From positions 3,914 to 67,913 of the forward strand of contig DUDS01000028.1 of the NCBI GenBank assembly GCA_004769085.1: 64,000 nt of DNA, in the 5' to 3' direction. The position numbers and the translations under genes are program-made. Shown one piece after another: positions 12,147-52,596 of the stretch (positions are counted from its first letter, which is position 1; each line of letters starts with the position of its first letter). This DNA is from Candidatus Melainabacteria bacterium SSGW_16 (lineage in GTDB: Bacteria; Cyanobacteriota; Vampirovibrionia; 2-02-FULL-35-15). Under the pieces are notes generated by a model. That model was not told the origin of the DNA. It ran no database searches and saw only the letters and a program-made list of their open reading frames with translations.

Positions 12147-12248
12147 GATTTTGACGATTTATTCGTCAAAATCTGTAGAATGTTACAAGTGGTCGGCCGT
12201 GAATACTTTGCAAAGCCTGACAAGCGAAGAATGAGCGAGGAAGGCGGT
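12147..12248 (+). repeat. Family-1 structured intergenic repeat, copy A
   Basis: gattttgacgatttattcgtcaaaatc hairpin, ctgtagaatgtta box, then core tactttgcaaagcctgacaagcgaagaatgagcgaggaaggcggt. It lies 62 nt upstream of the rel start. Confidence 0.75.
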
Positions 12249-12310
12249 AGGAAATAACAGGTTCAATGATGAATCCTTGAAATTTAACATGAAAGATAGC
12301 TGTCTGAACA

Positions 12311-22241: not shown

Positions 22242-25200
22242 TTAATTTCCTGTAACTGTAACCAGCGGGCTGCAAGTTCCTGTAGTAGTGTTACAAAGTT
22301 TAACCTGAATTCCAGACTGAAAGCTTGAAGTAAAATAAGTAGCTCTATCATATGAAATAGGTCCGTTATTAAAACAGAGTGCTAAAGAAGGATGCATATT
22401 TGTACCAGCTGTATCTTTTAACACAGCACAGTTGCTTCCACCTAGTGAGGTCGCACTGAAATCTATAGTAACTGTACTTCCACTTATTGAAACACTGTTT
22501 AATGTTATTGTTTCTGTTGTTGTTACAGCCACCAGGCTACTGCAACTATTTGAATTGTTTTGATTGCATAACTTAACTTGTGTTCCACTTACAAGGGCAG
22601 GAGTGAAATCAGATGTAGGAAAAACAGAGTTAAAAGAGCCGACTCCGCACAGATTAGTTGACTTTAGTATGTTATTGCTTGCATCTTTGACAAGTAAGCA
22701 TGTGTAAGGATCGACACTATAAGATATTGTTGCACTTGCTCCATTAATTGAGACACTGCTAAGTGTAATCGTTTCAGATGCTCCACAACCAACTGTACTG
22801 TAGGTTTGTCCTGATGGGCAGGTGCATTTGTTTTGTGAATCATATGTAGCACTTCCGGCACATATACAAGCATCGGATCCTTGTGAAGCTTCTCCAGGAT
22901 TGCATGGTCTTTCGCATCCATTAAATGGATCATATGTTCTTCCATTGGTACAACTACATGAGCCGCCTGAACCACCAAACGTTCCATATGGACCACAGCT
23001 ACATGGATTTGACGAGTTATATCCTTCTCCTATATAACACATTCTTCTACAAGAGTTTGTGTAATTTGAATTATGATAGATAGAACCATTTGAACATTTG
23101 CAAGAACCATTTCGTCCAGTTGGTTGTGCACCGCCACCGCATGTGCAACCTGTTGCACTTTGTCCGGGGACACATTCAACAGTTCCTGTCACTGTAACCA
23201 GCTGACTACAAACATTGTAGTTATTTCCATGACATAGTTTTACTTGAATCCCTGACTGAAAACTTGAATTGAGCTCTGAAACAGATACTGTTGTTGAATT
23301 ATTTCCTGAAGTACAGAAAAGGTTCTGAGTGTGCAGTATTACATTGTTTGAGTTAAGTAAATGAGCACATGTAGAGAAGTTCTTATTATAAGTTACTGTT
23401 GCACCATTTCCACTGATTGATACGCTGCTCAGTGTTACTTGATCTTGGGAGGTAGGAGTAGGGGTCGGTGTTGGAGCAGTATTACTTATGGTAACAAGTG
23501 AGCTGCATATGGTGCTATCGTTTGATTTGCAGATTTTAACTTGGTCACCAACAATTACTGTGTGTGGGAACGTAGATATAGGTGCATTTACAGTTGTCCC
23601 CGAGGTACTTCCACAAAATAAACTGTAAAGAGTAACACCGTTTATATCCTTGAGGTATGCGCATGAACCATCATTAGGAAAACTAGTGCTAAAGGTAACT
23701 GCAAGATTACTACTACTTATAACTGCACTTGTTAGAGTTATTGTTCCTTGAGTTGAGGCAGGACATGTTGCAAGCGTAACTGCACAAGTGTTGTCAGAAC
23801 ATCTGATTGGTGTAGCTGGAGGACAGGAAATATTAGAACATTCAGCTTGTGTAACCCTGCAAGTTCCATCTGAACACTTGAATGGATAACTGGATGGGCA
23901 AGAATTTGTCCCTCCGCTATCACATGGAATAGGAGATTTAGGAGGCAGACCAACATAGCTAGCAGCAGGAGGAGGACCATTTGGACAGACAGCTACACAA
24001 CTGTTATTAGAGAAGTAAGGTAGTCCTGTAGGACAAATACATTGTGCTTCTCCTTTTCCATTTGAATTTGGCAACATGTTACCACTGCAGTTTGTAGTAG
24101 TAACTGAAGAGCAACCATATTCTTTTGTATAAGCACCGCTATTTGTTGGACAAGTACAATATCCGCTGAAACTATATCCTCCACCAGAAGGATTGCAGGT
24201 ACACCCAGCAGTACCTACAGATATACCTGGAGAACAATAATTTGTTGAGCTTGTAGTACATTTTCCAGCTTGATCAGGATAACTTTTATCTGAGCATAAA
24301 CAAGCTAACATTGGTGAATAGTTACTACCAGGTGCAGCACTACCATATGTTTGTGGGTAACCAGCTGTTAATCCTTCAGGACATTTTGCTACACAAGTAG
24401 CACTAAAACTAATAGGCTTATCATCAGGACATTTACATGGCGGATTATTACTTGGATTTGTAATATAAGGATATGGGCAATTTGTTGTAGAACTACCACA
24501 ACCATATTCTTTTGTATAGGTTTGGTTTGAAGATGAACATTTACAAAAACCTGAGTCAGAATATGCTCCGGGTCCACATGTGCAGCCTGTTGAAGTCGAT
24601 ATTCCAGGAGAGCAATAATTTGTACTGTAAGAACCGCACCCTTGGGATGAATAAGCACCGCTGTATCCCGTTGGGCATTGGCAAGGAAGTACTAGTCCGG
24701 ATGTATAACCTGGGCTTGCACATGAACAGTTGTCTTTAGCTGGTATTTCACCGGCTTCACAATTTCTCTGATTACTATTTGTACATGGAATAGGAGATTT
24801 TGGTGATAAATTCAGACTAGCAGAAGCTGGTGGAGATCCATTTGGACAACTTGCTATGCATTTTACATTATCCCAGTAAGGTAATCCTGGAGGACAAATA
24901 CACTGAGCTTCACCTGGAGTATTGTTAGGCAACATATTGCTGCCACATCTATTTTCTTTTTTACATCCATCAGGGCCTGATATAGAACCATCTTTATTGC
25001 ATCTGCAGATACCATTTTGATCTTTATATTGATCTGTCCCACATTCGTTAGTTGGTATACATTTACCACTACTGTCTTTTTTAAAACCAGGAGGACAGTT
25101 ATTTGTGATTACTATTCCAAAACACTGATTGCATTCAGGAGGTAGGTCTGATCCTGTTATATCATTGAAATCTGATGATCCAAATCCTGATGTTGGGTAT

Positions 25201-27476
25201 GGGAATGTATTCCCGTTGTTAAATATTTGTTCTAGATACTTCCTTACAAAAGGAATACTCCTGCAATATTCAGGACAGTTGTGTTCTTCGCATTTCCCTG
25301 ATGGTCCTATTGCTTTGCCTTCAGGGCATTCACAAAAACCATCTTCAGTTTCTATAAAACCTGGAGGACATTTTTTTCTGCAGATACCATTTTGATCTCT
25401 TACCAGTCCTTCTTCACAAACAGGCAGGCAAATATTTTCATAATCAATGTCAATTTCATATCCTTCCGGACAAGTATCTTTGCACAATCCAATAGCATCA
25501 AATTTTACTATTCCATTCTCGTTAAAATTATCACTGTTTCTGCACAGGCACTCTCTATAGTTATTTATAACAGGCCCTTTCCCAGGAAAAGATTGGAAGT
25601 TTGCCAGTGGAGAATTACTTACCGGTGGCAGATTTTTATTACAGCATTTTGAAGAGAATAGACTAGGTTCACGCCCTGTACAGTCAAATAACCTGCCAGC
25701 TTCTATATCACAACTTCTGTGACAATCACATACTTCACAAGTTTCAAACCCATCTGTAATTGAAGAGAAGTTATTAAATAATCCTGCACGGAAATTCTCT
25801 TCACATTGTTTATGGCATGTACTTACTTCACATTCTTCTGCGATTTTATCCGGTGTAAACTGATCAAATTTGCTTTGCGGGTTTGTGCTTAGTGGTACAC
25901 AATAAGTGTTGCCTTTTGAATTTGTTGCTGTTGTCCATGAAACAGAACTGTGACTAAAGAAATTCTGATTGTAGCAATCAGTTTCGTTTATATCTGTGCC
26001 TATTCTTGCGCAGAATGGATCCTTAACAGGTTTTACGATACATTCCGGTAGTATGGGTCCACACCTTCTGCCCTGGCATATTTTTTTTGGATCAGAGTTT
26101 CCTGAAATGGTTGAAAGTTGACTAATATTACAGAAACCCGTAGTAGGAGCTTCACATTTTGGCGGCTTAATAGCACTAAATTCAACACAGTTTACTGGGG
26201 GACAGGGCAAGCTTGATATCACCTTCTGATTAAAATCGCTCAGGACTTTTGAGTACTCATTACATGGTCTATCTTCATTTATCTCTGTAGATGCTATGCT
26301 TTCACAATATCCTTTGCCAATTAAAATGTTGTCTTCAGTACTGGCCTGGCTGATGGATTCTTTTATTAAATTAAATTCAGGGAAGAAACAATCAGTATTT
26401 TCAATAAAATTCTTGAAGTCTGAACCTATTTCATTTAAATCATTGTCATCACCGTTACATTTGTCTGAAAACTGATATATATCGCATCCAAAATCCTGGA
26501 AAGTATCTGGTTCTTCCTCTTCTGTCTGTAGTTTTTCAAGTTGATCCTTTGCTGCTTCACTGGCAAGTTCTTCATATTCTTTCCCGATTCCTGCTGTAAT
26601 GCTTGATCCATCGCTTACTTGAATAGGTTTCTTTGCTTTTAATGCATTGCTTTCAACATCATTGTTAAGAGGTGTAACTGCAAACTGATCTTTTTCTGTT
26701 ATGGCATGAATAATACCAACATCAATCTTTTCAGGGATCTCAGTAAGTGATTTTGTTTCATTTTCGTCCTTATTATTTTTAAGTCCATATTTATCGATTC
26801 CGCTGGTTCTTCCTTTTCTCAAAATGGAAGTATTTTTTAATTTATCTGCTCTTACCTCAGCAATAAATCCTCCATTCTCACCGATGGGCACTGTATTGTC
26901 CGAAATTATATTTCCATTTAAATCTTCAATTGTTACAAAACCAGATTTTGCTGATTTTACACTTCCTACAATAAGTGCTGGTGTCTGATAGTTGAATGAT
27001 TCTGAAGATACATCAAGCTCTTCTCCGGAAATTATTACTTTATAATCTCCTTTTGGTAGCGAGCTGGGTGATAATGTAATGCCAGCAGATGTTGTGGTAC
27101 TTGAAAAATTAACTGACAGATAAAGCTTGCTCTGTCCTTTTATCCTCTTTCTTTGTATGCTGATTCCGTTTGCTGGAATTTTATAATCTTTTGTTGAGTC
27201 AATAGTTGAAGCAAGATTCAGTGAGAGTCTGTTTAGACCTAACTTTCTTACTGTATTTAAAAGTGACTTTGGAAGTAGCAGTAAAATCTGATTGACATTT
27301 GGATCCAGAACACTTCCAAATATGTTTGAATTACCATTTTCGTTTATGGCCTGAATATTTGCCTGGTGTACAGTATTTGAGTTTTTCTTTTTTCCATTAG
27401 AAGCATATGATGAACAAGCAGGAATCAAAATTCCTGCTGCTAAAATAAAAGCAACAATAATAGAAAGGAATCTCAT
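22242..27476 (-). CDS. giant exported cysteine-dense repeat protein (1744 aa), possible lipoprotein
   Basis: Signal/lipobox-like ILIPAC. The N-terminal ~330 aa are Cys-poor, followed by dense CxxC/CxC modules (e.g. CPEGYEID..CLPVCEEG..GICRKKCPPGF..GFCECPEG), an internal ~285-aa duplication, a PTPTPTPT linker and four C-terminal ~85-aa 4-Cys modules. Confidence 0.85.
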   Translation of the reverse strand: MRFLSIIVAFILAAGILIPACSSYASNGKKKNSNTVHQANIQAINENGNSNIFGSVLDPNVNQILLLLPKSLLNTVRKLGLNRLSLNLASTIDSTKDYKIPANGISIQRKRIKGQSKLYLSVNFSSTTTSAGITLSPSSLPKGDYKVIISGEELDVSSESFNYQTPALIVGSVKSAKSGFVTIEDLNGNIISDNTVPIGENGGFIAEVRADKLKNTSILRKGRTSGIDKYGLKNNKDENETKSLTEIPEKIDVGIIHAITEKDQFAVTPLNNDVESNALKAKKPIQVSDGSSITAGIGKEYEELASEAAKDQLEKLQTEEEEPDTFQDFGCDIYQFSDKCNGDDNDLNEIGSDFKNFIENTDCFFPEFNLIKESISQASTEDNILIGKGYCESIASTEINEDRPCNEYSKVLSDFNQKVISSLPCPPVNCVEFSAIKPPKCEAPTTGFCNISQLSTISGNSDPKKICQGRRCGPILPECIVKPVKDPFCARIGTDINETDCYNQNFFSHSSVSWTTATNSKGNTYCVPLSTNPQSKFDQFTPDKIAEECEVSTCHKQCEENFRAGLFNNFSSITDGFETCEVCDCHRSCDIEAGRLFDCTGREPSLFSSKCCNKNLPPVSNSPLANFQSFPGKGPVINNYRECLCRNSDNFNENGIVKFDAIGLCKDTCPEGYEIDIDYENICLPVCEEGLVRDQNGICRKKCPPGFIETEDGFCECPEGKAIGPSGKCEEHNCPEYCRSIPFVRKYLEQIFNNGNTFPYPTSGFGSSDFNDITGSDLPPECNQCFGIVITNNCPPGFKKDSSGKCIPTNECGTDQYKDQNGICRCNKDGSISGPDGCKKENRCGSNMLPNNTPGEAQCICPPGLPYWDNVKCIASCPNGSPPASASLNLSPKSPIPCTNSNQRNCEAGEIPAKDNCSCASPGYTSGLVLPCQCPTGYSGAYSSQGCGSYSTNYCSPGISTSTGCTCGPGAYSDSGFCKCSSSNQTYTKEYGCGSSTTNCPYPYITNPSNNPPCKCPDDKPISFSATCVAKCPEGLTAGYPQTYGSAAPGSNYSPMLACLCSDKSYPDQAGKCTTSSTNYCSPGISVGTAGCTCNPSGGGYSFSGYCTCPTNSGAYTKEYGCSSVTTTNCSGNMLPNSNGKGEAQCICPTGLPYFSNNSCVAVCPNGPPPAASYVGLPPKSPIPCDSGGTNSCPSSYPFKCSDGTCRVTQAECSNISCPPATPIRCSDNTCAVTLATCPASTQGTITLTSAVISSSNLAVTFSTSFPNDGSCAYLKDINGVTLYSLFCGSTSGTTVNAPISTFPHTVIVGDQVKICKSNDSTICSSLVTISNTAPTPTPTPTSQDQVTLSSVSISGNGATVTYNKNFSTCAHLLNSNNVILHTQNLFCTSGNNSTTVSVSELNSSFQSGIQVKLCHGNNYNVCSQLVTVTGTVECVPGQSATGCTCGGGAQPTGRNGSCKCSNGSIYHNSNYTNSCRRMCYIGEGYNSSNPCSCGPYGTFGGSGGSCSCTNGRTYDPFNGCERPCNPGEASQGSDACICAGSATYDSQNKCTCPSGQTYSTVGCGASETITLSSVSINGASATISYSVDPYTCLLVKDASNNILKSTNLCGVGSFNSVFPTSDFTPALVSGTQVKLCNQNNSNSCSSLVAVTTTETITLNSVSISGSTVTIDFSATSLGGSNCAVLKDTAGTNMHPSLALCFNNGPISYDRATYFTSSFQSGIQVKLCNTTTGTCSPLVTVTGN

Positions 27477-27761
27477 TAATTAAAGCTTGATAAGGATTAA
27501 AGCTTTCAATAGTGATTTACCTCACGTATAACCTGCAAGAAGAGGGATAGCAGTACTTAAGATCAATTTCAGAAAAAGCGTCTTTAACTAAAATTCTTTT
27601 TAATCTAATTAATCTAATAATTTATAAGAAGTTATTCTTATAGGGGAATCCCTATTGTATGAGATTTAAAATCTCACCAAAGATAATATTTTTGTTTAAA
27701 AATATTTTTATCTTTTACTTAAAATGTGTCCAGTGAATTTCTTAATTCTTAAAGCTGCATT

Positions 27762-30188
27762 TTATTTTTTATTTCCTTTGGAACTAGGTAAATTATTATT
27801 AGGCAGAGCTGGTTGTGTAATAGCAATGGAATTATTACCATTGTTTAAAGGGTTCTGATTATTATTTCCTGAATTATTGCCAGGTAAAACTGGTGGCGGT
27901 GGTAAAACTGGTTGAGTAATAGCAATGGAATTATTACCATTGTTTGAAGGATTCTGGTTATTGTTTCCTGAATTATTATTAGGCAAAGTTGGTTGAGTAA
28001 TAGCAATGGAATTATTACCATTGTTTGAAGGATTCTGGTTATTGTTTCCTGAATTATTATTAGGCAAAGTTGGTTGAGTAACAGTTATGGGATTAAAGTC
28101 ATCATCATCATGTGAAGGGTGATTATTGTTTCCTGAGTTGTTATTAGGCAGAGGTGGTTGAGTAACAGTTATTGGATTAAAGTCATCATCGTCATCATCA
28201 TGTGAAGGGTGATTATTGTTTCCTGAGTTGTTATTAGGCAGAGGTGGTTGAGTAATAGCAATGGGATTAAAACCATTACCATTGTTTGAAGGATTCTGAT
28301 TATTGTTTCCTGAGTTGTTATTAGGCAGAGGTGGTTGAGTAACAGTTATGGGATTAAAGTCGTCATCGTCATCATCATGTGAAGGGTGATTATTATTTCC
28401 TGAGTTGTTATTAGAGCCATGGTTGTCATCATCGTCGTCATCATCATCATTGTGTGAGGTGTGATGATCGTTATTATTAGAGCCATGGTTGTCATCATCG
28501 TCGTCATCATCATCATTGTGTGAGGTGTGATGATCGTTGTTATTAGAGCCATGGTTGTCATCGTCGTCGTCATCATCATCTAATGAAGTTTCTATGGGGG
28601 CTGGCTGAGCAGTTAATTTAGGATTCTTTAATGATGTCCCTCCGCGGGGTGAATTCCTAACATTTTCAACTAAGGCTGAAATAAATGAAGGATCATAGCC
28701 ATTTCCTGAAGCAGACTGGTTTATTATTACATTTGGATTATGTGAAATAAAATCAGGATCGTTCCAGACTGGGCCATTACCGTAGGAAACAGTTGTATTT
28801 CCATTAGTTGCCTGATTATTATTTCCATTGTTGTTTCCATTATTGTTGTTAGTTGAGTCAGATTCATTTGGTTCATCAACAGATATTTCTACAGAAACAT
28901 TTTCGACTGGAGTCTCATTTATTACAGCATCATTGCTTGCAACGTTATTTATATCATCTGCTTCAATATCTGCTTCACTTATAAGAAAAAGTCCTCTGAA
29001 AATCGGACTTTCTTCTCCAGATTCATTTGTAATTCTAATCCTGAATCTTGCAGTGTCAGTGCTTTCTATTTTGAAGGTTTCAAATGAAGGTAAACCATCT
29101 CCTGATGTCTCTGTTTCTGCAAGTAAAGTATTTTTTGAATCTTCAAATGCTGAGTAAATGAGAACCTTTTGTTTAAAATTTTCTGCAAAATAAAGTCCAA
29201 GTGTACATCCGTTTATGCAGGTATTGTCTGGAGGAGAAAGATAAAATTCAGCACCATTAAATCCGTCTGGACCGGACTGTCCTTTTATTACCTTAAAACT
29301 GTATGAGTCTGCTACCCTGGATGAAACAAATTCATATCCTGTTGAAGTTGTATCTTCTATACTTCCCAGACTAATGTCTATAATATCCTTATCGTACGTA
29401 TCTTCTTCAGCATCTGGTGACCATACTATTGCATTATAATTTTCTCTAAACAGATTATTAAGAGATAACGGGGCTTCAACTTTAGTTCTGCCGTCGTAAT
29501 TTACTGGGAGGCTTTTTTCTTCTCTCGGAGTTCCCCAGAATAATCCACTTACTACTGGTTTTGTGTTACTGGCTGTTTTCAACTCAATTGTTGCTTTGCC
29601 ACTAGTACCTTTTGGTGGTCCTTTAATTAAAAGATTCAGATAGCAACCTTTGTTGTACTTTGTATTTTGAATATAAACAATATCTCCAAGTGAATCCAAA
29701 GCGTATGAAAGTTTAATTCTGACTTGCTGTTCCGGGATTTTGCTTACAAAGGGGTCGATATAAATACTTAGCGGATACCATACTCCAAAATTGCTGTTAT
29801 TTTCTAATTCAAGATTTATTTCTGTGGATTCACCTGGCAAAGAAGAGGTAATATAAAAACCATTTCTGGAATTTTTAGATGATTCAAGTGTGCTAATTCC
29901 AATTAAACTTGTCTGCTCAATAATGCCGTTGTATTGAACACTTTTTACAAAGCTAGGAAGATTGTGAAGATTATCACTCTGCCCTGGAATCCAGTAATAA
30001 GAGTATTCTGATGACCATGCTCCATTTAGTTCACAGTTGAGCTTTTGAATATCTTCTTTAATGTAGTCAGTGTTAAGGTAGATTGTATTGGAAACCGTTT
30101 CTGCTGAAAATGCCTGATTTGGGCCCAAAAGTAGTATAAAAACTGTTAACAGCATTTGTGTAATGCAAATTAAGAACCTGCTATTCAT
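27762..30188 (-). CDS. exported protein with globular N-terminal half and Asn/Asp/His-rich tandem-repeat C-terminal half (808 aa)
   Basis: Signal peptide ending AFSAE. The C-terminal half has repeats NNNDHHTSHNDDDDDDDDNHGS (x3), FNPITVTQPPLPNNNSGNNNHPSHDDDDDD and NSIAITQPTLPNNNSGNNNQNPSNNGN. Confidence 0.8.
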   Translation of the reverse strand: MNSRFLICITQMLLTVFILLLGPNQAFSAETVSNTIYLNTDYIKEDIQKLNCELNGAWSSEYSYYWIPGQSDNLHNLPSFVKSVQYNGIIEQTSLIGISTLESSKNSRNGFYITSSLPGESTEINLELENNSNFGVWYPLSIYIDPFVSKIPEQQVRIKLSYALDSLGDIVYIQNTKYNKGCYLNLLIKGPPKGTSGKATIELKTASNTKPVVSGLFWGTPREEKSLPVNYDGRTKVEAPLSLNNLFRENYNAIVWSPDAEEDTYDKDIIDISLGSIEDTTSTGYEFVSSRVADSYSFKVIKGQSGPDGFNGAEFYLSPPDNTCINGCTLGLYFAENFKQKVLIYSAFEDSKNTLLAETETSGDGLPSFETFKIESTDTARFRIRITNESGEESPIFRGLFLISEADIEADDINNVASNDAVINETPVENVSVEISVDEPNESDSTNNNNGNNNGNNNQATNGNTTVSYGNGPVWNDPDFISHNPNVIINQSASGNGYDPSFISALVENVRNSPRGGTSLKNPKLTAQPAPIETSLDDDDDDDDNHGSNNNDHHTSHNDDDDDDDDNHGSNNNDHHTSHNDDDDDDDDNHGSNNNSGNNNHPSHDDDDDDFNPITVTQPPLPNNNSGNNNQNPSNNGNGFNPIAITQPPLPNNNSGNNNHPSHDDDDDDFNPITVTQPPLPNNNSGNNNHPSHDDDDFNPITVTQPTLPNNNSGNNNQNPSNNGNNSIAITQPTLPNNNSGNNNQNPSNNGNNSIAITQPVLPPPPVLPGNNSGNNNQNPLNNGNNSIAITQPALPNNNLPSSKGNKK
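27790..28590 (-). repeat. in-frame coding tandem repeats (81-90-nt and 66-nt units)
   Basis: The gttgagtaa unit starts at 27911, 27992, 28073 (81-nt period), 28157, 28247 and 28334. The agagccatgg unit starts at 28413, 28479 and 28545 (66-nt period). Confidence 0.85.
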
Positions 30189-36890: not shown

Positions 36891-36911
36891 ACCCTTGTTT
36901 TAAGAAATAGT

Positions 36912-37027
36912 GTAATTACTCACCGCCCTCCTCGCTCCTTCGTCGCTTGTCAGGCTTTGCAAAGTGCTTACGGTCTACTATTTATAACATTCTACAGATT
37001 ATGACCCGCCCAAGGCGGATCATAATC
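36912..37027 (-). repeat. Family-1 structured intergenic repeat, copy C
   Basis: The reverse complement reads gattatgatccgccttgggcgggtcataatc-tgtagaatgtta-...-cactttgcaaagcctgacaagcgacgaaggagcgaggagggcggtgagtaattac. It lies just 3' of mraY. Confidence 0.75.
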
Positions 37028-37056
37028 TTTCCTTGCTGAGAGTTATATTTCCACTT

Positions 37057-38277: not shown

Positions 38278-38294
38278 GAGCTAACCTTTTTATT

Positions 38295-38399
38295 GCCGCC
38301 TTCCTCGCTCATTCTTCGCTTGTCAGGCTTTGCAATGTACATTTCTAGGGTACCCCTTGTTGCAGCATTCAGATTTTACCGAATGAATCGGATAAAATC
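38295..38399 (-). repeat. Family-1 structured intergenic repeat, copy D
   Basis: The reverse complement reads gattttatccgattcattcggtaaaatc-...-tacattgcaaagcctgacaagcgaagaatgagcgaggaaggcggc. Its 3' end lies 17 nt upstream of the yggT start. Confidence 0.75.
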
Positions 38400-38638
38400 T
38401 CCCTGTATAAATAGTCTAATTTGATATTTTGACTTAGGTAGGTAATAACAACCATCTCTTTATTTTAAGACAAAGTTAAGTTCTTATAAAGACTTTCAGC
38501 CGTAGAAGTATGCAATTGTACACCCTCTACGGCTGAAATTTAGATAAGCAGCATGCTTTTTATTATCTTCTTCTCTTTTTGGCTGCTTTTTTGCTTGATT
38601 TTTTCTTTGTTTTCTTTGCCATTATTTTCTCCTTTCCT

Positions 38639-40580: not shown

Positions 40581-40708
40581 ATCCGGGTTTAAAGAACGTG
40601 TTATCTAAACGGTGTTATCATGTTATTGAGCCGTTAATATTACAAAATAATATGAGCTACTGCTTACCTAACTGCTGTAATTTTATAGTTAACTCACTTG
40701 TAATGAAA

Positions 40709-40812
40709 GGTTTTGGTCCGCCCAAGGCGGAGCAAAACCTGTAGAATGTTAGGAATCAGACCGTAAGTACTTTGCAAAGCCCGACAAGCGAAGAATGAGC
40801 AAGGAGGGCGGT
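40709..40812 (+). repeat. Family-1 structured intergenic repeat, copy B
   Basis: ggttttggtccgcccaaggcggagcaaaacc-tgtagaatgtta-...-tactttgcaaagcccgacaagcgaagaatgagcaaggagggcggt. It ends 13 nt before the tmk-like ATG. Confidence 0.75.
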
Positions 40813-40825
40813 AGGTAGAAACAAC

Positions 40826-41516: not shown

Positions 41517-41588
41517 GCCGATGTAGCTCAGTGGTAGAGCAGCTGTTTCGTAAACAGCAGGCCGTGGGTCCGACTCCCACCATCGGCT
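41517..41588 (+). tRNA. tRNA-Thr (anticodon CGT)
   Basis: Hand fold: acceptor GCCGATG/CATCGGC, D arm GCTC-AGTGGTA-GAGC, anticodon arm GCTGT-TTCGTAA-ACAGC, variable AGGCC, T arm GTGGG-TCCGACT-CCCAC, discriminator T. No encoded CCA. Confidence 0.85.
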
Positions 41589-41597
41589 TTTTTTATA

Positions 41598-41671
41598 CCG
41601 CTCGTTTCGCACGAATGCTCAACTCGCTTTTCAGTCACGGCGCTTCTTGGTGAGTGAATCACACAAGAAGC
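41598..41671. repeat. Family-2 repeat, copy 1
   Basis: The core ccgctcgtttcgcacgaatgctcaactcgctt is followed by the hairpin gcttcttggtgagtgaatcacacaagaagc. Confidence 0.65.
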
Positions 41672-41723
41672 TTGTATGTTAGAACTCCACTGACAACTAA
41701 TATAATAAAATTTGATTATAATA

Positions 41724-41796
41724 TCGCTCGTTTCGCACGAATGCTCAACTCGCTTGTAGATATTAGGCGCATTTGCCGAGTGAATCGGACAAATGC
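41724..41796. repeat. Family-2 repeat, copy 2
   Basis: The core tcgctcgtttcgcacgaatgctcaactcgctt (identical to copy 1) is followed by the hairpin gcatttgccgagtgaatcggacaaatgc. Confidence 0.65.
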
Positions 41797-41820: not shown

Positions 41821-43407
41821 ATGCTTACACGGAGACAATTTAATAAATTATTGCTTGCGTCGATTTTATTACCATCTTATGGATGCACTTTTCGTAGAAA
41901 TATAAAATATATTCCAAAGACTTTAAGACTAAATCTAGGATATGAGCCGGATAGCCTTGACTGGGCAAGAGCGACAGATTCATATTCGTTTGATGTAATT
42001 GCAAACATAATGAGCGGGCTTACTAAATATAATAATGATCTCCGTTCAGTACCTTCCCTGGCTCAAAACTGGAAAATTTCACCTGATGGGAAGATCTATA
42101 CTTTTTTTCTTGATAAAAATGCTAAATGGTCAGATGGAGTGCCTGTTCTTGCCAGAGATTTTGAATATGGCTGGGAGAGAATTCTAAACCCGCTTACAGC
42201 CGGACCTTATGCATATTTGCTTTACCCGGTTAAAAATGCTCAGAAATACAACAGTGGATTGATTACTGACCCAAACCAGCTTGGCGTTCGGACATTAAGT
42301 GACTCAGTCCTTCAGGTTGAGCTTGAAAAGCCGCTGTCATTTTTTTTAAATCTTACTTCCTGGTGTGTATTTTTCCCTCAACGGAAAGATATTATTCAAA
42401 AATATGGTGATGACTGGACAGAACCAGGGAAACTTGTGTCATGTGGTCCATTTAAACTTGATAAGTGGCAGCATGAATATAAAATTACGCTTATAAAGAA
42501 TGATCATTATAAAAATCCTGAGCCTGCACTTGAAAAAATAAAATATTATATAGTCTCTGAACAATCAAGCGCATTTTCCCTTTACCTGAATGATGAACTT
42601 GATTTTATTGACTCAAGATCAATACCTGTAAGTGAGATTGAAACAGTAAAGAGAAAAAAAGAAACAGTAATTCATCCCTTATTGAGAGGTACTTACATTG
42701 GGTTTAATGTTGAAAAGCCTCCATTTAATAACAGACTTGTAAGGGCAGCATTCAGTTCTTCAATTGACAAAAATGTTTTTCCAAAGATTTTGGGGAGAAG
42801 TGAAATTCCATCAAGCACATGGATTCCTCCAGGATTGACGGATTTTTACTCTCCTGACATTGGAATCTCCTATAATATTGAAAATGCAAGGAAACTGCTT
42901 GCTGATGCAGGTTATCCTGATGGCAGAAATTTCCCTAAGGTGAGTTTGTATTTTCCTACCAGAGAAGATGCAAAACTTCTTTCAGAAGCAGTACAATCTC
43001 ACTGGAAAAAAGCATTGAATATTGAAGTGGAGGTTGTTAATCTGGAGTGGAAAGTTTTTCTGGATACTCTTCATAAAGATCCCCCGCACTTGTTCAGGCT
43101 TAGCTGGGGTGCAGACTATCCTGACCCCGATACATTCATGACCCTTTTTACAAGCGATTCAGGGAATAATCATGGTAGATGGAAAAGTAAATCATATGAT
43201 GAAATTGTTAATGTGGCTGCTTCAGAAATGAATCTTGGCAGGAGAAAATCACTTTATAGAAAGGCACAAAAGATTCTTCTTGAAGAAGAGGTAGGAATTG
43301 CGCCTCTATTTTTTAACACACAGATTCTGCTTAATAAGCCATGGGTTAAAAACTTTGAATTCAACTCGATGGATTTAGTGTTTTGTGAAAAGATAATAGT
43401 TACCTAG
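41821..43407 (+). CDS. ABC transporter substrate-binding protein, family 5 (oligo/dipeptide-binding type)
   Basis: Lipoprotein-like N-terminus (LLLASILLPSYGC), then SLDWA..TDS, W.DG.P..A.DF and GWGADYPDP-type (SWGADYPDPDTF) motifs. No permease or ATPase genes are adjacent. Confidence 0.85.
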   Translation: MLTRRQFNKLLLASILLPSYGCTFRRNIKYIPKTLRLNLGYEPDSLDWARATDSYSFDVIANIMSGLTKYNNDLRSVPSLAQNWKISPDGKIYTFFLDKNAKWSDGVPVLARDFEYGWERILNPLTAGPYAYLLYPVKNAQKYNSGLITDPNQLGVRTLSDSVLQVELEKPLSFFLNLTSWCVFFPQRKDIIQKYGDDWTEPGKLVSCGPFKLDKWQHEYKITLIKNDHYKNPEPALEKIKYYIVSEQSSAFSLYLNDELDFIDSRSIPVSEIETVKRKKETVIHPLLRGTYIGFNVEKPPFNNRLVRAAFSSSIDKNVFPKILGRSEIPSSTWIPPGLTDFYSPDIGISYNIENARKLLADAGYPDGRNFPKVSLYFPTREDAKLLSEAVQSHWKKALNIEVEVVNLEWKVFLDTLHKDPPHLFRLSWGADYPDPDTFMTLFTSDSGNNHGRWKSKSYDEIVNVAASEMNLGRRKSLYRKAQKILLEEEVGIAPLFFNTQILLNKPWVKNFEFNSMDLVFCEKIIVT

Positions 43408-43706
43408 AAGGCCTGTTGTACCACCATAAGATCTTTTTTAAACCTGCTTGTGGAAAAGATTTTATATCCATTTGACATATGTATTTTGATAGTTAAGTTA
43501 TTTAACAGTAGAGATTTATTTAATTTGTTATTAGGCGAATTTCTTATTAAACAGGCTTAAAAGAGCCAAAATCCTGACTCATTAAATATAATTAATGTTC
43601 TTTTCATATTTATGTAGGATAGAAATCTCAACAATTTTTTTAGTTTTAAGCCTTTATACTTATTGAGCTTATGTGATAAGAATAGGTTAATAACCAGGGG
43701 TGTAAA

Positions 43707-47569: not shown

Positions 47570-48244
47570 ATGAACAGTCGTTCAGCAGCAAGAGAAATTG
47601 TAGTTTTGGCCCTCCCGCAGTTGCCAAAAGATAATATTAAGCTTACAAATACTGATTTAAAAGCAATTATCCTTGCATTAAGCAGGTCTTTAAGTGATTA
47701 TGCAAAAAAAAACATATCTTCTGTTTCTGCTGATTTGCAAAAGATAGAGAGTTTTTTGTTAAATGCTGAGATTGAACATCCTGATAATGAAAAACATGTA
47801 ACCCAGATTGAACCTGTTTTAATTCCTGATACTGCTGTCTTGCGGAAACAAGTTAATGCACTTCAGCAGGCAGCAACTGAATTGTTCAATGTTTTAGAAA
47901 TTCCTGAGCTTATAACTCATACCGATCAGGAACAAACCCATGAGTATGTAATATTTATTTTAAATAAATATATTGAAAACAAAGAAAAAATAAATGAAAC
48001 AATTGAGCAGGCTGCCCAGAGGAGAAAAAGTGACAAAAAATGGAAACTGGGAAGAATGGTCAGGCTCGATCGTGACATTCTCAGAGTGGCGGCTACAGAA
48101 CTTTTATTTATAACTGATACCCCGACTGAAGTAATCTGTGATGAAGCAGTAAAAATTGCAGATAAATATGGCGGAGATGAAAGCAAAAAATTTGTAAACG
48201 GTGTATTGAGAGATATTGTAGAGCTTTCAAGAGTGAAGTCTTAG
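47570..48244 (+). CDS. nusB: transcription antitermination factor NusB (long form)
   Basis: ARE..V..L at the N-terminus. The C-terminus reads RLDRDILRVAATELLF.TDTP..V.CDEAVKIADKYGGDES.KFVNGVLRDI. The 224-aa length comes from a central insertion. Confidence 0.85.
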   Translation: MNSRSAAREIVVLALPQLPKDNIKLTNTDLKAIILALSRSLSDYAKKNISSVSADLQKIESFLLNAEIEHPDNEKHVTQIEPVLIPDTAVLRKQVNALQQAATELFNVLEIPELITHTDQEQTHEYVIFILNKYIENKEKINETIEQAAQRRKSDKKWKLGRMVRLDRDILRVAATELLFITDTPTEVICDEAVKIADKYGGDESKKFVNGVLRDIVELSRVKS

Positions 48245-48444
48245 TTTAGTAAGCACAGAGTCAGATTTTATTTATCAATGTACTTGACTAGGGACTAACC
48301 CGATTTCCTTTTTTGATCGGTCTTTGCCTGGGAGGCTACCCTAGCAAATCTTAAGATCGAGACTTTAATAATTTATCAAGGTTTTACATTAATATACTTT
48401 CATTAAAAGAGAGAAAGAGTAAGGGGAAAATATTTCTTTCTCTT

Positions 48445-51186
48445 GTGACTTATTTGTTTTTTGGTGGGGAACTTATGACTTCATTTTATAGAAATACCAT
48501 TTCAATTATTTCTAATCTAGTTAATCTGCAGCTTAAACCAAAGACTCTGCTTGCATTTATTTTTACAATATTAATTTCTCTCTCAATACCTTTAAATATA
48601 TTACTGCCACTAAAAGCAAGTACTGAGCTTAGTAGTAATCTAGCTGCACAGACATATGTGCAGAATAATCTTGTGACTAACGGTATTGTAAATGATATTG
48701 AAGTAGCGGATGGGATTATTTATTTGGCTGGACATTTTACACAAGTTGGTCCAGATACAGGCAGTGCTGTTCCGTTTGATATTAATACCGGCAGAATTGC
48801 AACTTCCTTCCCAAAGGTAAACAATACGATAAGAGCTATTATTCCAGATGGTTCTGGTGGCTGGTTCATAGGAGGAGATTTTACTTTAGTAGGTGGGCTA
48901 ACTAGAAATAGAATTGCTCATATACTTTCTGATGGTACGGTAGATCCTAATTGGAATCCTAATATAGATCCAATAGGTAATTTTATGGGTAAATATGGAA
49001 ATAATTTTGAATACATAAGTAATGTTACTGCTCTTGCACTTAGTGGCTCAACTCTATATGTAGGTGGAGGATTTTCAACGGTTGGAGATAAAGCTAGAAG
49101 TAGTATTGCTGCGATTGATACTAAAACAGGTAATGTAACTGACTGGAATCCTAATGTATATGATCCCCATATAGGTGTTGTTAAGGCTCTTGCAGTTAAA
49201 GATTCTACTCTTTATGTTGGTGGACAGTTTACAGAGGTTGGCGGGCAAATTAGATATAACCTTGCTTCTGTAGATATATCAACAGGTAATGTAACAACTT
49301 GGAATCCAAATGTAAATTATGATGGAAGGATTTATACCTTTGTAGTAAGCAACTCAATTCTATATGTTGGTGGTGACTTTAAGATCATTGGAGGGCAAAT
49401 AAGGAATGGTCTTGCAGCAATTGATACTACTACAGGGAATGTAACAACCTGGAACCCAAATGTACGTGCAATTGGTTTAGGATTGGCAATTAATGGCTCA
49501 ACTATTTATGCTGGAGACGGGAATTCTATTGTGGCGATTGATACCACAACAGGGAAAGTAACTAGTTTAAATCTTGAATTTACAGGAAGTACAAGGGGAT
49601 GGAATATTGTTAATGCTATAGCAATTCATGATTCTACACTTTATGTTGGCGGGGACTTTACAATGGTTAATAACGAGGTTAGAAATAATTTAGCCTCAAT
49701 TAACTTATCTACAAAAGAACTAACAAGCTGGAACCCAAATTTAGGTGCCTATGTTTTAGCTCTTGCATTTAGTGATCCTACTCTTTATGTCGGTGGTGAA
49801 TTTACTACTATTGGTGGGCAAACCAGAAACAACCTTGCAGCAATAGATGCAACCACTGGAAATTTAACCAGCTTTAATCCAGATATTGGTAGATATGCAA
49901 TCATACATGCTATTGAAGTTAATGGTTCTACTCTTTATGTAGGAGGTGGACGATGGGGGAATAACCTAGCAGCTATAGATACAAATACAGGAAGAATTAC
50001 AAGTTGGAATCCAGGTGTAAATGGAGAAATTTATGATCTTAAAGTTAAAGACTCTACTCTTTATGTTGGTGGAAATTTTTCAAGTATTGGCGGACAGAGT
50101 AGAAATGACATTGCAGCAATTGATTTAGTTACTAGAGATGTAACAAACTGGAAACAAGATGTAGAAGGCGGTATCTATGTGCTTCTCATTGATGACTCTA
50201 CTCTCTATGCTGGAGGAGATTTCATTTCAATTGGTGGACAACAAAGAAACAATCTTGCAGCAATTGATCTAAAAACAGGAGCAGTAAAAGATTGGAATCC
50301 GAATATATTGAGTTGGAGTCGCTATGTAGGTAACTGGGGGAAACCAAAGGGACCAGGTTGGTATCAGGGTTGGAGTCCTCATTTCTACGGAAGAGGTCGG
50401 GTCTCAGCACTTGCTGTTAGTAGTTCTAATCTTTATATTGGCGGTATCTTCACAGCTAATGGACAGAGAGATTGTCTTATTGCAGTTGATAAACTTACAG
50501 GAAGTTTATCAAATTGGAGTCCACGAATAGATGGTGGAGTATTTGCACTTACAGTAAAGGGATCAACTCTTTATATAGGTGGTGGATTTGAAATGATTGA
50601 TGGTAAAAATAGAATTAACCTTGCTTCAATTAATTTAACTACAGGCAATGTAACAGACTGGGCTCCTAATGCTGGTCCACTTTGTTGGAATCCGGATGAA
50701 GCGTTAGGACAGTGTACTAATAGTATTGTTGCAACACTTACAACTGATCCCTCAACTCTATATGCTGGTGGTAATTTTACATCAGTTGGTAATGATGTAA
50801 ATTCTTTCTTTGCAAGATTTTCTTTAGATCAAGGTACTAGTCTACCTTCTTCAAACACTAGTCACTTGCCTTCAGGAAAGGATACGAATCAAGGACCAGC
50901 TGAAGTTGCCCCCAATGGAACACATGGTAATCAAAGTTCTACTACCATACAACCTGTCTCAAACTCGAACAATACACCTCAAGGCAATGCATACGGAACA
51001 GTAAATAATGATCCTGGAAGACCAGCTGGTGGTAGGCCACCTGAAGCTACAACAACACAAACAAACTCAACTACTCCAATTACAGCACCAGCAGCTTCTG
51101 AGCCTATTAATTCAACACAAGGTAATGCACCTGAACCAAATCACGGTGTTGGCAATGGAAATGGCAATGGGAATGGAAAACATTAA
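48445..51186 (+). CDS. exported multi-blade beta-propeller repeat protein (delta-60/DUF5122-like repeats), low-complexity C-terminus
   Basis: There are 14 or more repeats of STLYVGG.FT.IGGQ.RN.LAAID..TGNVT.WNPN. The N-terminal TM/signal is LLAFIFTILISLSIPLNILLPL and the tail is NGNGNGNGKH. ATG 48475 is an alternative start. Confidence 0.8.
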   Translation: MTYLFFGGELMTSFYRNTISIISNLVNLQLKPKTLLAFIFTILISLSIPLNILLPLKASTELSSNLAAQTYVQNNLVTNGIVNDIEVADGIIYLAGHFTQVGPDTGSAVPFDINTGRIATSFPKVNNTIRAIIPDGSGGWFIGGDFTLVGGLTRNRIAHILSDGTVDPNWNPNIDPIGNFMGKYGNNFEYISNVTALALSGSTLYVGGGFSTVGDKARSSIAAIDTKTGNVTDWNPNVYDPHIGVVKALAVKDSTLYVGGQFTEVGGQIRYNLASVDISTGNVTTWNPNVNYDGRIYTFVVSNSILYVGGDFKIIGGQIRNGLAAIDTTTGNVTTWNPNVRAIGLGLAINGSTIYAGDGNSIVAIDTTTGKVTSLNLEFTGSTRGWNIVNAIAIHDSTLYVGGDFTMVNNEVRNNLASINLSTKELTSWNPNLGAYVLALAFSDPTLYVGGEFTTIGGQTRNNLAAIDATTGNLTSFNPDIGRYAIIHAIEVNGSTLYVGGGRWGNNLAAIDTNTGRITSWNPGVNGEIYDLKVKDSTLYVGGNFSSIGGQSRNDIAAIDLVTRDVTNWKQDVEGGIYVLLIDDSTLYAGGDFISIGGQQRNNLAAIDLKTGAVKDWNPNILSWSRYVGNWGKPKGPGWYQGWSPHFYGRGRVSALAVSSSNLYIGGIFTANGQRDCLIAVDKLTGSLSNWSPRIDGGVFALTVKGSTLYIGGGFEMIDGKNRINLASINLTTGNVTDWAPNAGPLCWNPDEALGQCTNSIVATLTTDPSTLYAGGNFTSVGNDVNSFFARFSLDQGTSLPSSNTSHLPSGKDTNQGPAEVAPNGTHGNQSSTTIQPVSNSNNTPQGNAYGTVNNDPGRPAGGRPPEATTTQTNSTTPITAPAASEPINSTQGNAPEPNHGVGNGNGNGNGKH

Positions 51187-51244
51187 AAACTTTGTAAATG
51201 GTGTTTTAAGAGATATTGTTGAACTCTCAAGGGTTAAGTCATAG
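51185..51244 (+). pseudogene. orphan duplicate of the nusB 3' end (19 codons plus stop)
   Basis: It encodes KNFVNGVLRDIVELSRVKS*, against NusB KKFVNGVLRDIVELSRVKS* at 48185-48244. It is offset by exactly 3000 nt in the same frame, with 47/57 nt identical and every difference at a third codon position. Confidence 0.85.
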
Positions 51245-51347
51245 AACTTTCACTTTTTATGCTCAACCCATACCTGCGCTTCGCTTGGTGGGCTTGGCGC
51301 CTCCAACGCTCCGCTAAAGGTATGGGTTTCGCTTTTGTGAAAGTTCT
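51243..51347. repeat. 105-nt GC-richer palindromic element
   Basis: agaactttcac (51243-51253) pairs with gtgaaagttct (51337-51347), and aacccatacc pairs with ggtatgggtt. It contains the atgctcaac and gcgcttcgcttg strings shared with families 2 and 1. Confidence 0.65.
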
Positions 51348-51363
51348 CTAATTAAACAAACCG

Positions 51364-52596
51364 TTATAGTGCTGCTTTATACGCACTAACTGCCATTTCT
51401 TTTGTTACCGGCTGTAATGGATTTGTAATTGCAGAGATGTCTTTAATGGCTTTTTCTGCCATGGAATCGATACTACTTTCTTTAACCCCTGCCTCACTGA
51501 GTCTTGAGGGGATTCCTATATCTTTATTTAATTTTTCAATTTCAGAAATAAATTTATCTGCAATTTCATCATCTGACCCATTCGAACTTATTTCAAAAGC
51601 TGATGCCATTGTGACATATTGTGGAGTGGAGACTTTTTTGTTTATCCTTAAAACATGGGGTAGCATGATTGCATTTGCAAGTCCATGTGGAAGGTTATGT
51701 TGTGCCGATAGCTGATGTGAACAGGCATGTACAAGCCCTACAGATTTCTGATTGAATGCCATGCCTGCAATCATAGCTCCAAGTGACATATTTATTCTTC
51801 CTATAACATCCTGTCCGTTTGAATAAACCTTTCTAAGGTGTTGATAAATAAGTGCTATTGCCTGAAGAGAAAACATGTCTGCTATTGGATTTATTCTGAG
51901 GGAAATAAAAGCTTCAATAGCATGTGTAAGTGCATCCATTCCACAAGATGCTGTAAGTTTTGGAGGGCATGAAAGAGTTAGTTGTGGATCAACAAGTGCA
52001 ATAGTTGAAATAAGAGGATAACCAAGGATAGTAATTTTTTCTTTTTTTTTGTCTGCTGAAGTTATCATAGATACAATTGAGACTTCAGAGCCTGTACCGC
52101 TTGTTGTTGGGATACTTATCTGATGAGGCAGTGATTCATGAACTGCCATTATTGTAGATTTTGTAGCATCATAATCAGATGGTTTTCCACCCTGTTTAGC
52201 GATTAACCTTATTATCTTTGCTGCATCAATAACACTTCCACCACCAATTGCAATTACAATATCTGAACCAGTCGATTTATATTTTTCAGCGCCTTTTGTT
52301 ACTGTTTCTTCTTTTGGATTTGGCTCAATCTCATTAAATATATTTGATCTTATTCCGCTTTTCTCAAGATATTTTTGTATTTTAGAAGCAAATCCAAGCT
52401 TTTCTATTTCAGCATCAGTTACTATAAATGCATTTTGTGCTTTAAGAAAAAGTGACAGAAATCCAATCCTGTTTAGCGCGCCATAGCCAAAAATAACCTG
52501 AGGTGCAAAACTAAAACCCATTACTCCTGTATCAAGGATTTGTCCTTTAATAGTGGGGTCAATAAGTGGTAATTCTATTTCTTCTGTTTGTACCAT
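51364..52596 (-). CDS. iron-containing (group III) alcohol dehydrogenase
   Basis: IAIGGGSVIDAAK, TTSGTGSE and the His cluster (DALTHAIE, HACSH, PHG). Confidence 0.9.
   Translation of the reverse strand: MVQTEEIELPLIDPTIKGQILDTGVMGFSFAPQVIFGYGALNRIGFLSLFLKAQNAFIVTDAEIEKLGFASKIQKYLEKSGIRSNIFNEIEPNPKEETVTKGAEKYKSTGSDIVIAIGGGSVIDAAKIIRLIAKQGGKPSDYDATKSTIMAVHESLPHQISIPTTSGTGSEVSIVSMITSADKKKEKITILGYPLISTIALVDPQLTLSCPPKLTASCGMDALTHAIEAFISLRINPIADMFSLQAIALIYQHLRKVYSNGQDVIGRINMSLGAMIAGMAFNQKSVGLVHACSHQLSAQHNLPHGLANAIMLPHVLRINKKVSTPQYVTMASAFEISSNGSDDEIADKFISEIEKLNKDIGIPSRLSEAGVKESSIDSMAEKAIKDISAITNPLQPVTKEMAVSAYKAAL

Follow-up and report, generated by a model that had tools for sequence, protein, structure and literature searches.

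A duplicated nusB 3′ end around a propeller gene in a Melainabacterium points to DNA gained from a relative

Why would the last codons of nusB occur twice, in one frame and 3000 nucleotides (nt) apart, on either side of a single gene? The question is raised by a 64,000-nt stretch of Candidatus Melainabacteria bacterium SSGW_16 (GenBank assembly GCA_004769085.1, contig DUDS01000028.1, positions 3,914 to 67,913), which we call the window and whose guanine plus cytosine (GC) content is low (34.9%). An initial interpretation made from the letters alone, here the sequence-only reading, took the second nusB end for the scar of an integrated element. Comparison with related loci indicates that ~3 kb of DNA, carrying a gene for a beta-propeller protein and its own version of the nusB tail, was inserted into the 3′ end of nusB. 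As to the route of entry, we see an even chance that host recombination was responsible, in the form of homology-facilitated illegitimate recombination, with homology on one side only and a microhomology joint between abutting genes.

The duplicated end of nusB

The nusB gene (47570–48244, plus strand) is intact, encodes 224 amino acids (aa) and is recognized by the Pfam NusB model (E = 1.6e-24); its body is native and its last ~19 codons are imported. Relatives of this NusB are likewise listed under Candidatus Melainabacteria. The terminus (48185–48244) encodes KKFVNGVLRDIVELSRVKS and a stop. A second nusB-like end at 51185–51244, offset by exactly 3000 nt and in the shared frame, encodes KNFVNGVLRDIVELSRVKS and a stop. 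The two are identical at 50 of 60 nt, or at 47 of 57 when counted from 48188, and all 10 differences occupy codon position 3, nine being synonymous and one exchanging Lys and Asn at the 5′ edge, as the sequence-only reading had stated. By chance, 10 differences among 57 sites would all fall on the 19 third positions with P = 2.1e-6. The 57-nt shared segment (82% identity) has no identical run longer than 11 nt and includes an 8-nt block, TTTGTAAA, that is identical at the 5′ edge of both ends. Beyond the repeat, identity in the same register is only 32% upstream and 28% downstream. In a local-alignment scan of 372 open reading frame (ORF) ends, taken from the window and from the related loci that we fetched, 364 score at most 40 and the nusB pair scores 80. 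A chance origin of the repeat is excluded by this background together with the P value above. For annotation, the 78-codon ORF at 51008–51244 that carries the NusB-like tail should be treated as a relic and not as a gene.

The data are metagenomic, and one contig (L010) stops inside a palindrome next to the second copy, so that two strains wrongly joined by the assembler would be a conceivable source of the arrangement. The same order of nusB, leader, propeller gene and tail is present on an NCBI metagenome-assembly contig, which differs from the window by four single-nucleotide polymorphisms in 15 kb, and three samples contain it as well, in the form of Logan contigs. Moreover, an assembler would not collapse or chain copies with 10 differences in 57 nt. 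Because independent assemblies agree, we regard the artefact that the sequence-only reading had wished to see checked as excluded, its probability being vanishingly small.

An empty site and the native tail

The closest NusB (P0002, 98% aa identity) is encoded on two loci, L001 and L002, whose DNA is ~93% identical to the window and syntenic with it on both sides. In these loci, 5 nt separate the nusB stop from the stop of a convergent Fe-alcohol dehydrogenase (ADH) gene, and there is no insert. In the next lineage (P0004, 91% aa identity, L003–L008), the nusB and ADH genes overlap. The locus order in ~25 further Melainabacteria lineages is a gene for a large secreted protein, nusB, the convergent ADH gene, a PALP enzyme gene and a poly(A) polymerase-like gene; most of these lineages have nusB and ADH directly adjoining or overlapping. 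The ADH gene of the window (51364–52596, minus strand), identified by Pfam and by synteny in those ~25 lineages, is the ancestral convergent neighbor of nusB; the 90% cluster of its protein has two members only. Empty sites of the kind that the sequence-only reading had proposed to look for are therefore present in L001/L002, in L003–L008 and in the ~25 other lineages, with nusB next to ADH, and they support an actual insertion at the nusB 3′ end, one that brought along a surrogate tail with a past as the translated nusB end of a different lineage. Pairwise alignment of the window with L001 yields a single clean 3000-nt insertion at 48191.

The two tails differ in their relation to this sister genome. 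The functional one, t1 (48188–48244, plus strand), shows 8 differences from the L001 tail in 57 positions, compared with 27 in 618 (4.4%) for the nusB body; it is thus ~3 times more diverged than the body, all changes being synonymous. It groups instead with the tails of five other contigs, L011–L015, which share GTA GAR CTT TCA. The untranslated copy, t2 (51188–51244, plus strand), differs from L001 at 4 of 57 positions and, like the L001 tail, is followed by the spacer AACTT(T) and the end of ADH. Because t2 is closer to L001 and shares its spacer, the downstream copy is the resident tail, now a relic, and t1 arrived with the ~3-kb insert. This answers the question of which 19-codon tail is native, which the sequence-only reading had left to phylogeny.

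The left junction between native nusB and imported DNA is seamless and lies within 48158–48198 (plus strand), an interval without discontinuity: upstream of the tail, the window last departs from L001 at 48157, the tail-specific differences begin at 48199, and 48190 is A as in L001. The right joint (51184–51190, plus strand) appears illegitimate. Here the stop codon TAA of the inserted gene enters an A-run shared with nusB, and the sequence reads TAAAAAC/TTTG, where the slash marks the joint, against native GCAAAAAA/TTTG. Five nt (AAAAA) are shared at the joint, followed by one mismatch and then TTTGTAAA. From these borders, the imported DNA extends from within 48158–48198 to about 51187.

Contents of the insert

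Only a 230-nt non-coding leader and one ORF lie between the nusB copies. The sequence-only reading had described a structured leader, a 913-aa propeller ORF and no recombinase; the ORF and the lack of a recombinase hold, and the description of the leader as structured does not. The leader (48245–48474, plus strand) gave Rfam matches at chance level only, is not unusually structured as a whole (RNA fold z = -0.46), and contains no predicted sigma-70 promoter or terminator. It is homologous to the sequence that follows nusB in L011–L015, with a core at 48285–48355 that is 87–96% identical among strains, while the first 40 nt are ~55% and the remainder ~74% identical. An AT-rich hairpin (AGAGAGAAAGAG...CTTTCTCTTGT) with a T-run occupies 48409–48470, just upstream of the ribosome-binding site and the ATG (48475) of the propeller gene, and could be an attenuator-like feature.

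The cargo gene (48445–51186, plus strand) encodes a DUF5122/Rax2-type beta-propeller protein by Pfam, with an N-terminal hydrophobic segment. It is 913 aa long from a GTG at 48445 and 903 aa long from the ATG at 48475, which is the likely start; in an exact look-up, the 913-aa form is on record and the 903-aa form is not. The gene has internal blade repeats of ~150 nt, and its GC content, GC at third codon positions and codon usage are like those of surrounding genes. The low-complexity C-terminus ends in GNGNGNGNGKH, with the stop codon at the joint, and the ORF may have been cut short there. No support emerged for a programmed frameshift that would fuse propeller and relic tail. The nearest propeller homologues in the protein collection are 37–45% identical, and full-length and C-terminal searches for close orthologues reached at best 45% identity, with neither a donor nor a right junction among the matches.

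A related donor and a recombination mosaic

Where did the insert come from? NusB C-termini past the motif ...LRD[IV]V.L.R differ greatly in both length and sequence among the homologues collected here (P0001–P0105), and the one encoded by t1, ELSRVKS before the stop, is found only in this species group. Because this C-terminus is lineage-specific and the codon usage of the cargo is host-like, the donor was a fairly close relative. Short contigs of at least three further strains (L011/12, L013/14 and L015, NusB 98% identical at the aa level) carry a homologue of the leader of the insert downstream of nusB. By nusB-body distances, these strains and the window group together, with L001 outside, and a single insertion on the branch of the window and L011–L015 is the economical reading. 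The nusB tails of these strains differ by 9–13%, all of it synonymous, among strains whose nusB bodies differ by 0.8–3%, and in L013 the divergent tract begins ~55 nt upstream of the tail. The nusB-tail and leader region is thus a recombination mosaic. NusB scans of genomes and metagenomes returned only relatives of at most 75% identity; they provided synteny and one further locus discussed below (L038), and no further close strains.

The mosaic bears on a reading in which an identical 57-nt target duplication arose in situ and the t1-plus-leader allele was later swapped by homologous recombination with another strain. The exchange of tail and leader among strains and the closeness of t2 to the tail of the sister genome would both be expected under it. 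It needs two events where one suffices, however, and does not accommodate the donor ADH sequence in the relic block of another lineage (L049, below); we know of no bacterial insertion mechanism that makes target duplications of 40–60 nt. We consider this sequence of events very improbable.

Two observations concern the same region. A patch within nusB (47845–47940) has ~10 substitutions in 96 nt relative to all four closest alleles (~10% against 1–3% elsewhere) and looks like a short imported recombination patch. In many lineages (L016, L023, L025, L028, L034, L036, L037, L051), differing small genes lie between nusB and ADH, either a family of 230–300 aa on the minus strand or a pair of small membrane ORFs. 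The nusB–ADH junction is thus a hypervariable spot.

Other relic gene tails

All fetched loci were scanned for duplicated gene ends, a search akin to the one that the sequence-only reading had proposed for the genome, and three cases besides the window were found (L038, L049 and L001), which shows that such scars recur in relatives. In L038 (NusB 71% identical, positions 766–1394), nusB is followed by two small ORFs in a 0.56-kb module and then by a second tail, SKKFVNGILRDVVGLTRQPEIL and a stop, that is 91% identical to the functional tail over 53 nt, with identical runs of 22 and 21 nt. The relic starts at AAAGCAAAAAGTTTGTAAATGG, within ~9 nt of the border in the window, and both share TTTGTAAA; the cargo ends flush with the relic in both. 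The second ORF of the module has sub-threshold matches to CopG/BrnA antitoxins. A promoter-like site (TTGCAT-N18-TATAAT) lies just after the functional nusB stop of L038, and a gene other than ADH follows its relic.

The second case has a different architecture. L049 and L050 (NusB 78% identical) are two assemblies that are 99.96% identical to each other. Downstream of nusB, both have a hairpin and a pair of small membrane ORFs; next come a minus-strand relic of the ADH C-terminus and a relic of the final nusB codons, the latter accompanied by a duplicate of the hairpin. A further pair of ORFs separates these relics from the complete ADH gene. The ADH relic, ITKELVERVYRAEL and a stop, corresponds to ITKEVVEKIYRAAL and a stop in the real ADH (14 codons plus the stop). 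The border of the nusB relic is ~45 nt further 3′ in nusB than the borders in the window and L038. The inserted block has its end within an ADH copy and is therefore a piece of the same locus from another genome, illegitimately joined to the resident nusB end. At L049:2573–2690, and likewise in L050, the ADH-tail relic directly adjoins the nusB-end relic and the duplicated hairpin (ATGTAACCGTAGGTTACAT); this stretch records an unequal join between two nusB–ADH alleles.

The third case concerns a different gene. In L001 (5629–5830), the tail of a solute-binding-protein gene (SBP_bac_5) is repeated at 36 of 39 positions, ~100 nt downstream, around a small GC-rich hairpin. The three differences are all at third positions, and the downstream copy resembles the uninterrupted orthologue in the window (43340–43420). 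A further, nested relic of the native tail (FCEKII...) follows the repeat.

Across these cases, relic lengths are roughly 25–66 nt, and the left borders of the relics lie at or beside A-rich tracts, the aligned relic of L049 beginning ~11 nt upstream of its A-run. The ends of the inserts in the window, L038 and L049 show no mutual similarity beyond that of shuffled controls. Relics occur at ~3 of 30 nusB ends and at 1 of 344 other gene ends (Fisher P ~0.002, from approximate counts). Two candidates were set aside as relic cases: the loci of a truncated NusB (P0106) and of a NusB with an odd tail (P0026) show a split nusB or an internal stop and no relic. In L045 (6001–6678, on a 15.9-kb contig), nusB is split into ORFs of 146 and 63 aa, which could reflect a frameshift, a pseudogene or a sequencing error, and L048 has an in-frame stop near the nusB end.

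These loci also allow us to weigh a Campbell-type single crossover by host RecA between the resident nusB tail and a circularized chromosomal fragment carrying tail, leader and cargo. Such an event yields exactly the order tail, cargo, tail; the junction of ADH-tail and nusB-end relics in L049 can be read as the junction of a circle, and the identical runs of 22 and 21 nt in L038 could support pairing. The 57 nt shared in the window, at 82% identity and with a longest run of 11 nt, would be a poor substrate for RecA, and the fragment must be circularized in an additional step. We therefore judge this route improbable.

Search for element machinery

Is there any trace of an element that could have inserted itself? 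Pfam scans of the insert and of 42 ORFs with a length of 110 aa or more from the window detected no recombinase, integrase, resolvase or transposase domain; the window otherwise contains housekeeping genes. Neither the leader nor a degenerate pattern of the nusB tail matched any viral contig, and the nusB tail together with the leader had no match among phage or plasmid records. As the sequence-only reading had supposed, nusB seems not to have been described as an integration target: a limited full-text literature search found no paper on a nusB attachment site.

Several element types were tried and rejected. A transposon or miniature inverted-repeat transposable element (MITE) with target-site duplication would give repeats that start identical; t1 is ~3 times more diverged than the nusB body, and 57 nt is, to our knowledge, outside known target-duplication sizes. 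Target duplication by MITEs is also dismissed as a general cause, as the indels of GC-rich repeats between the window and L001 are without flanking duplicates of gene ends. A diversity-generating retroelement is out because the differences are not adenine-specific. For an integron cassette, direct reading revealed no attC-like inverted repeat at the cargo end, and the window has no integrase domain.

The strongest case for machinery is a site-specific integrative element with a tyrosine or serine recombinase, whose attP would mimic the nusB 3′ end and whose crossover would lie in TTTGTAAA, the integrase having been lost or acting in trans. Foreign DNA bracketed by a duplicated gene 3′ end, with a surrogate tail that preserves the gene and an empty site in relatives, is the classical signature of such an element, and the e14/icd/icdC system is a documented precedent (PMC13626634). 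L038 would be an independent insertion with a different, toxin–antitoxin-like cargo, its relic starting within ~9 nt of that in the window. The identity of TTTGTAAA at the 5′ edge of both copies and the edge difference at 51190 (C) fit a crossover there, and the enrichment of relics at nusB ends fits a site-specific element as well. Several findings nevertheless speak against this reading. Neither the insert nor the 64 kb encodes a recombinase domain, neither insert has room for arm sites, and the ends of the inserts in the window and L038 are unrelated. In L049, the joint lies elsewhere in nusB and the block includes donor ADH sequence, and the fourth relic is in a different gene altogether. 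The surrogate tail matches residues specific to the host lineage, the cargo is host-like, and viral contigs contain no nusB-tail sequence. On these grounds, the attL/attR interpretation of the sequence-only reading does not stand as the explanation of choice, and we regard a site-specific element as possible, on the unlikely side.

A variant of this idea is that the nusB 3′ end of Melainabacteria serves as an attachment site for small, recombinase-less cassettes inserted by a recombinase encoded elsewhere, a proposal to which we give little credence. In an equally speculative description, each cassette would bring one or two ORFs, ending flush with the site, behind a surrogate tail and a promoter or leader, in an integron-like arrangement with the coding tail of an essential gene in place of attI. 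If true, such cassettes would constitute a new kind of gene-capture platform, and the repeated replacement of the tail would explain why NusB C-termini are hypervariable and why the tails show an excess of synonymous differences.

A model based on host recombination

Returning to homology-facilitated illegitimate recombination, we start from the ancestral layout, in which nusB and the convergent Fe-ADH gene abut or overlap, and hypothesize that a ~3.0-kb fragment of the homologous locus from a closely related Melainabacterium recombined in. That the inserted DNA is a piece of a related chromosome is directly visible in L049; in the window, the support is indirect and comes from the lineage-specific tail, the host-like codon usage and the occurrence of the leader behind nusB in sister strains. 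The fragment would have consisted of the last ~19 nusB codons of the relative, the leader of ~230 nt and the gene for the propeller surface protein. On the left side, homologous pairing within nusB would leave the gene ending in the donor tail. The right end, lacking homology, would have been joined illegitimately at the A-run/TTTGTAAA, around nusB codon 206, and the resident tail would have been left as an untranslated relic, still on its original downstream DNA. An equivalent view is that two alleles of a hypervariable spot underwent unequal crossover.

The layout of the locus may itself explain why scars accumulate here. Because nusB and ADH abut, both genes can survive an insertion between them only when one gene end becomes duplicated in the process. 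Viable joints would accordingly be confined to duplicated ends or to a spacer of a few nt, from which an excess of relics at this place, and short ones, would follow. Host recombination would also account for the missing recombinase, the related donor, the structure of L049, the SBP_bac_5 case, the joints at A-runs and the mosaic leaders. We infer the pathway from these features, and an integrase would not account for the data any better.

Several points weigh against it. No more than ~87 nt of donor sequence, at 82–88% identity, can be seen in nusB, which is short and mismatched for a RecA anchor; donor sequence further upstream must then have been erased by later recombination. The borders in the window and L038 lie within ~9 nt of each other, with the cargo flush with the relic, which looks site-specific, and so does the enrichment of relics at nusB ends (~3/30 against 1/344). 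The supposed donor arrangement, with nusB, leader and propeller gene and no relic, is unseen, the contigs of L011–L015 ending inside the leader.

Comparison with known systems

The insertion scar belongs to a known kind and would hold little surprise for a specialist. Its closest counterpart is the integration of e14 or phage 21 into icd of Escherichia coli, where the incoming DNA supplies an alternative 3′ end with mostly synonymous changes and the native fragment persists as the icdC pseudogene (PMC13626634). Both systems place foreign DNA in a protein-coding 3′ end, provide a surrogate end and leave a relic pseudogene downstream. However, e14 is a prophage of 15 kb that encodes an integrase and is excised upon SOS induction, whereas the nusB insert is 3 kb long and has one cargo gene. 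No recombinase was found within the 64-kb window, and the insert thus lacks the one defining feature of integrase elements that the sequence allowed us to test.

Homology-facilitated illegitimate recombination requires one homology anchor and a microhomology joint of 3–10 bp, and no enzyme of an element (PMC6382021). As described in Acinetobacter, Streptococcus pneumoniae and Pseudomonas stutzeri, it fits the seamless left junction, the joint at the A-run, the related donor and L049. It is known mainly from laboratory selections, whereas the nusB case is deduced from natural genomes and its visible anchor is very short.

Islands in tRNA and tmRNA genes likewise have a direct repeat of the target 3′ end at the far border and recurrent insertion at one locus, as in the ssrA islands of Dehalococcoides (PMC3146451). 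Their repeats are ~20 bp, nearly identical and mostly accompanied by a serine-recombinase module, whereas the target here is protein-coding and the repeat spans 57 nt with synonymous divergence. Integron cassettes resemble the nusB inserts in being compact and recombinase-less, with an ORF flush with the site and, in L038, a toxin–antitoxin-like cargo. They differ in that the nusB inserts have no attC-like site, GTTRRRY core, IntI or attI, and in that the junction lies within the coding tail of an essential gene.

The locus thus offers a natural example, from an uncultured phylum, of a new gene wedged between abutting essential or core genes, where the displaced gene end persists as a relic that can be dated. 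Taken with L038, L049 and L001, it suggests that leftover gene tails may mark gene gain driven by recombination. Scans for such tails could show how often host recombination, and not mobile elements, builds hypervariable spots.

Flanking palindrome and other features of the window

Immediately beyond the right nusB copy is a near-perfect palindromic hairpin of 105 nt (51243–51347; DNA fold -27 kcal/mol, z = -5.6), and the element reported there by the sequence-only reading is thus real. It sits in a 114-nt stretch (51250–51363) that L001 lacks, and the native AGAACTTT behind the stop codon of the relic forms part of its outer stem. The palindrome is single-copy in the window and is the point at which contig L010 breaks. 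Judging from the alignment, this stretch is a separate insertion in native DNA, outside the 3-kb insert, and the palindrome may function as a bidirectional terminator or represent a hairpin element.

Elsewhere in the window, a family of GC-rich, MITE-like repeats occurs at 702–859, 12165–12259, 36911–37034, 38287–38461 and 40702–40821, with members also in L011 (179–340) and L015 (632–793). Several copies are insertions relative to the sister L001, and one lies between the large secreted-protein gene and nusB in L011, L012 and L015, and not in the window. A tRNA-Thr(CGU) gene (41517–41588) is followed by a 126-nt tandem duplication (to 41755), of which L001 has a single unit; its 40-nt repeat ends, at 41590–41629 and 41716–41755, are 93% identical. 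The region 22242–30188 holds two very large ORFs (1744 and 808 aa) without a Pfam match, the 808-aa ORF having tandem coding repeats of 66–99 nt at 27791–28601.

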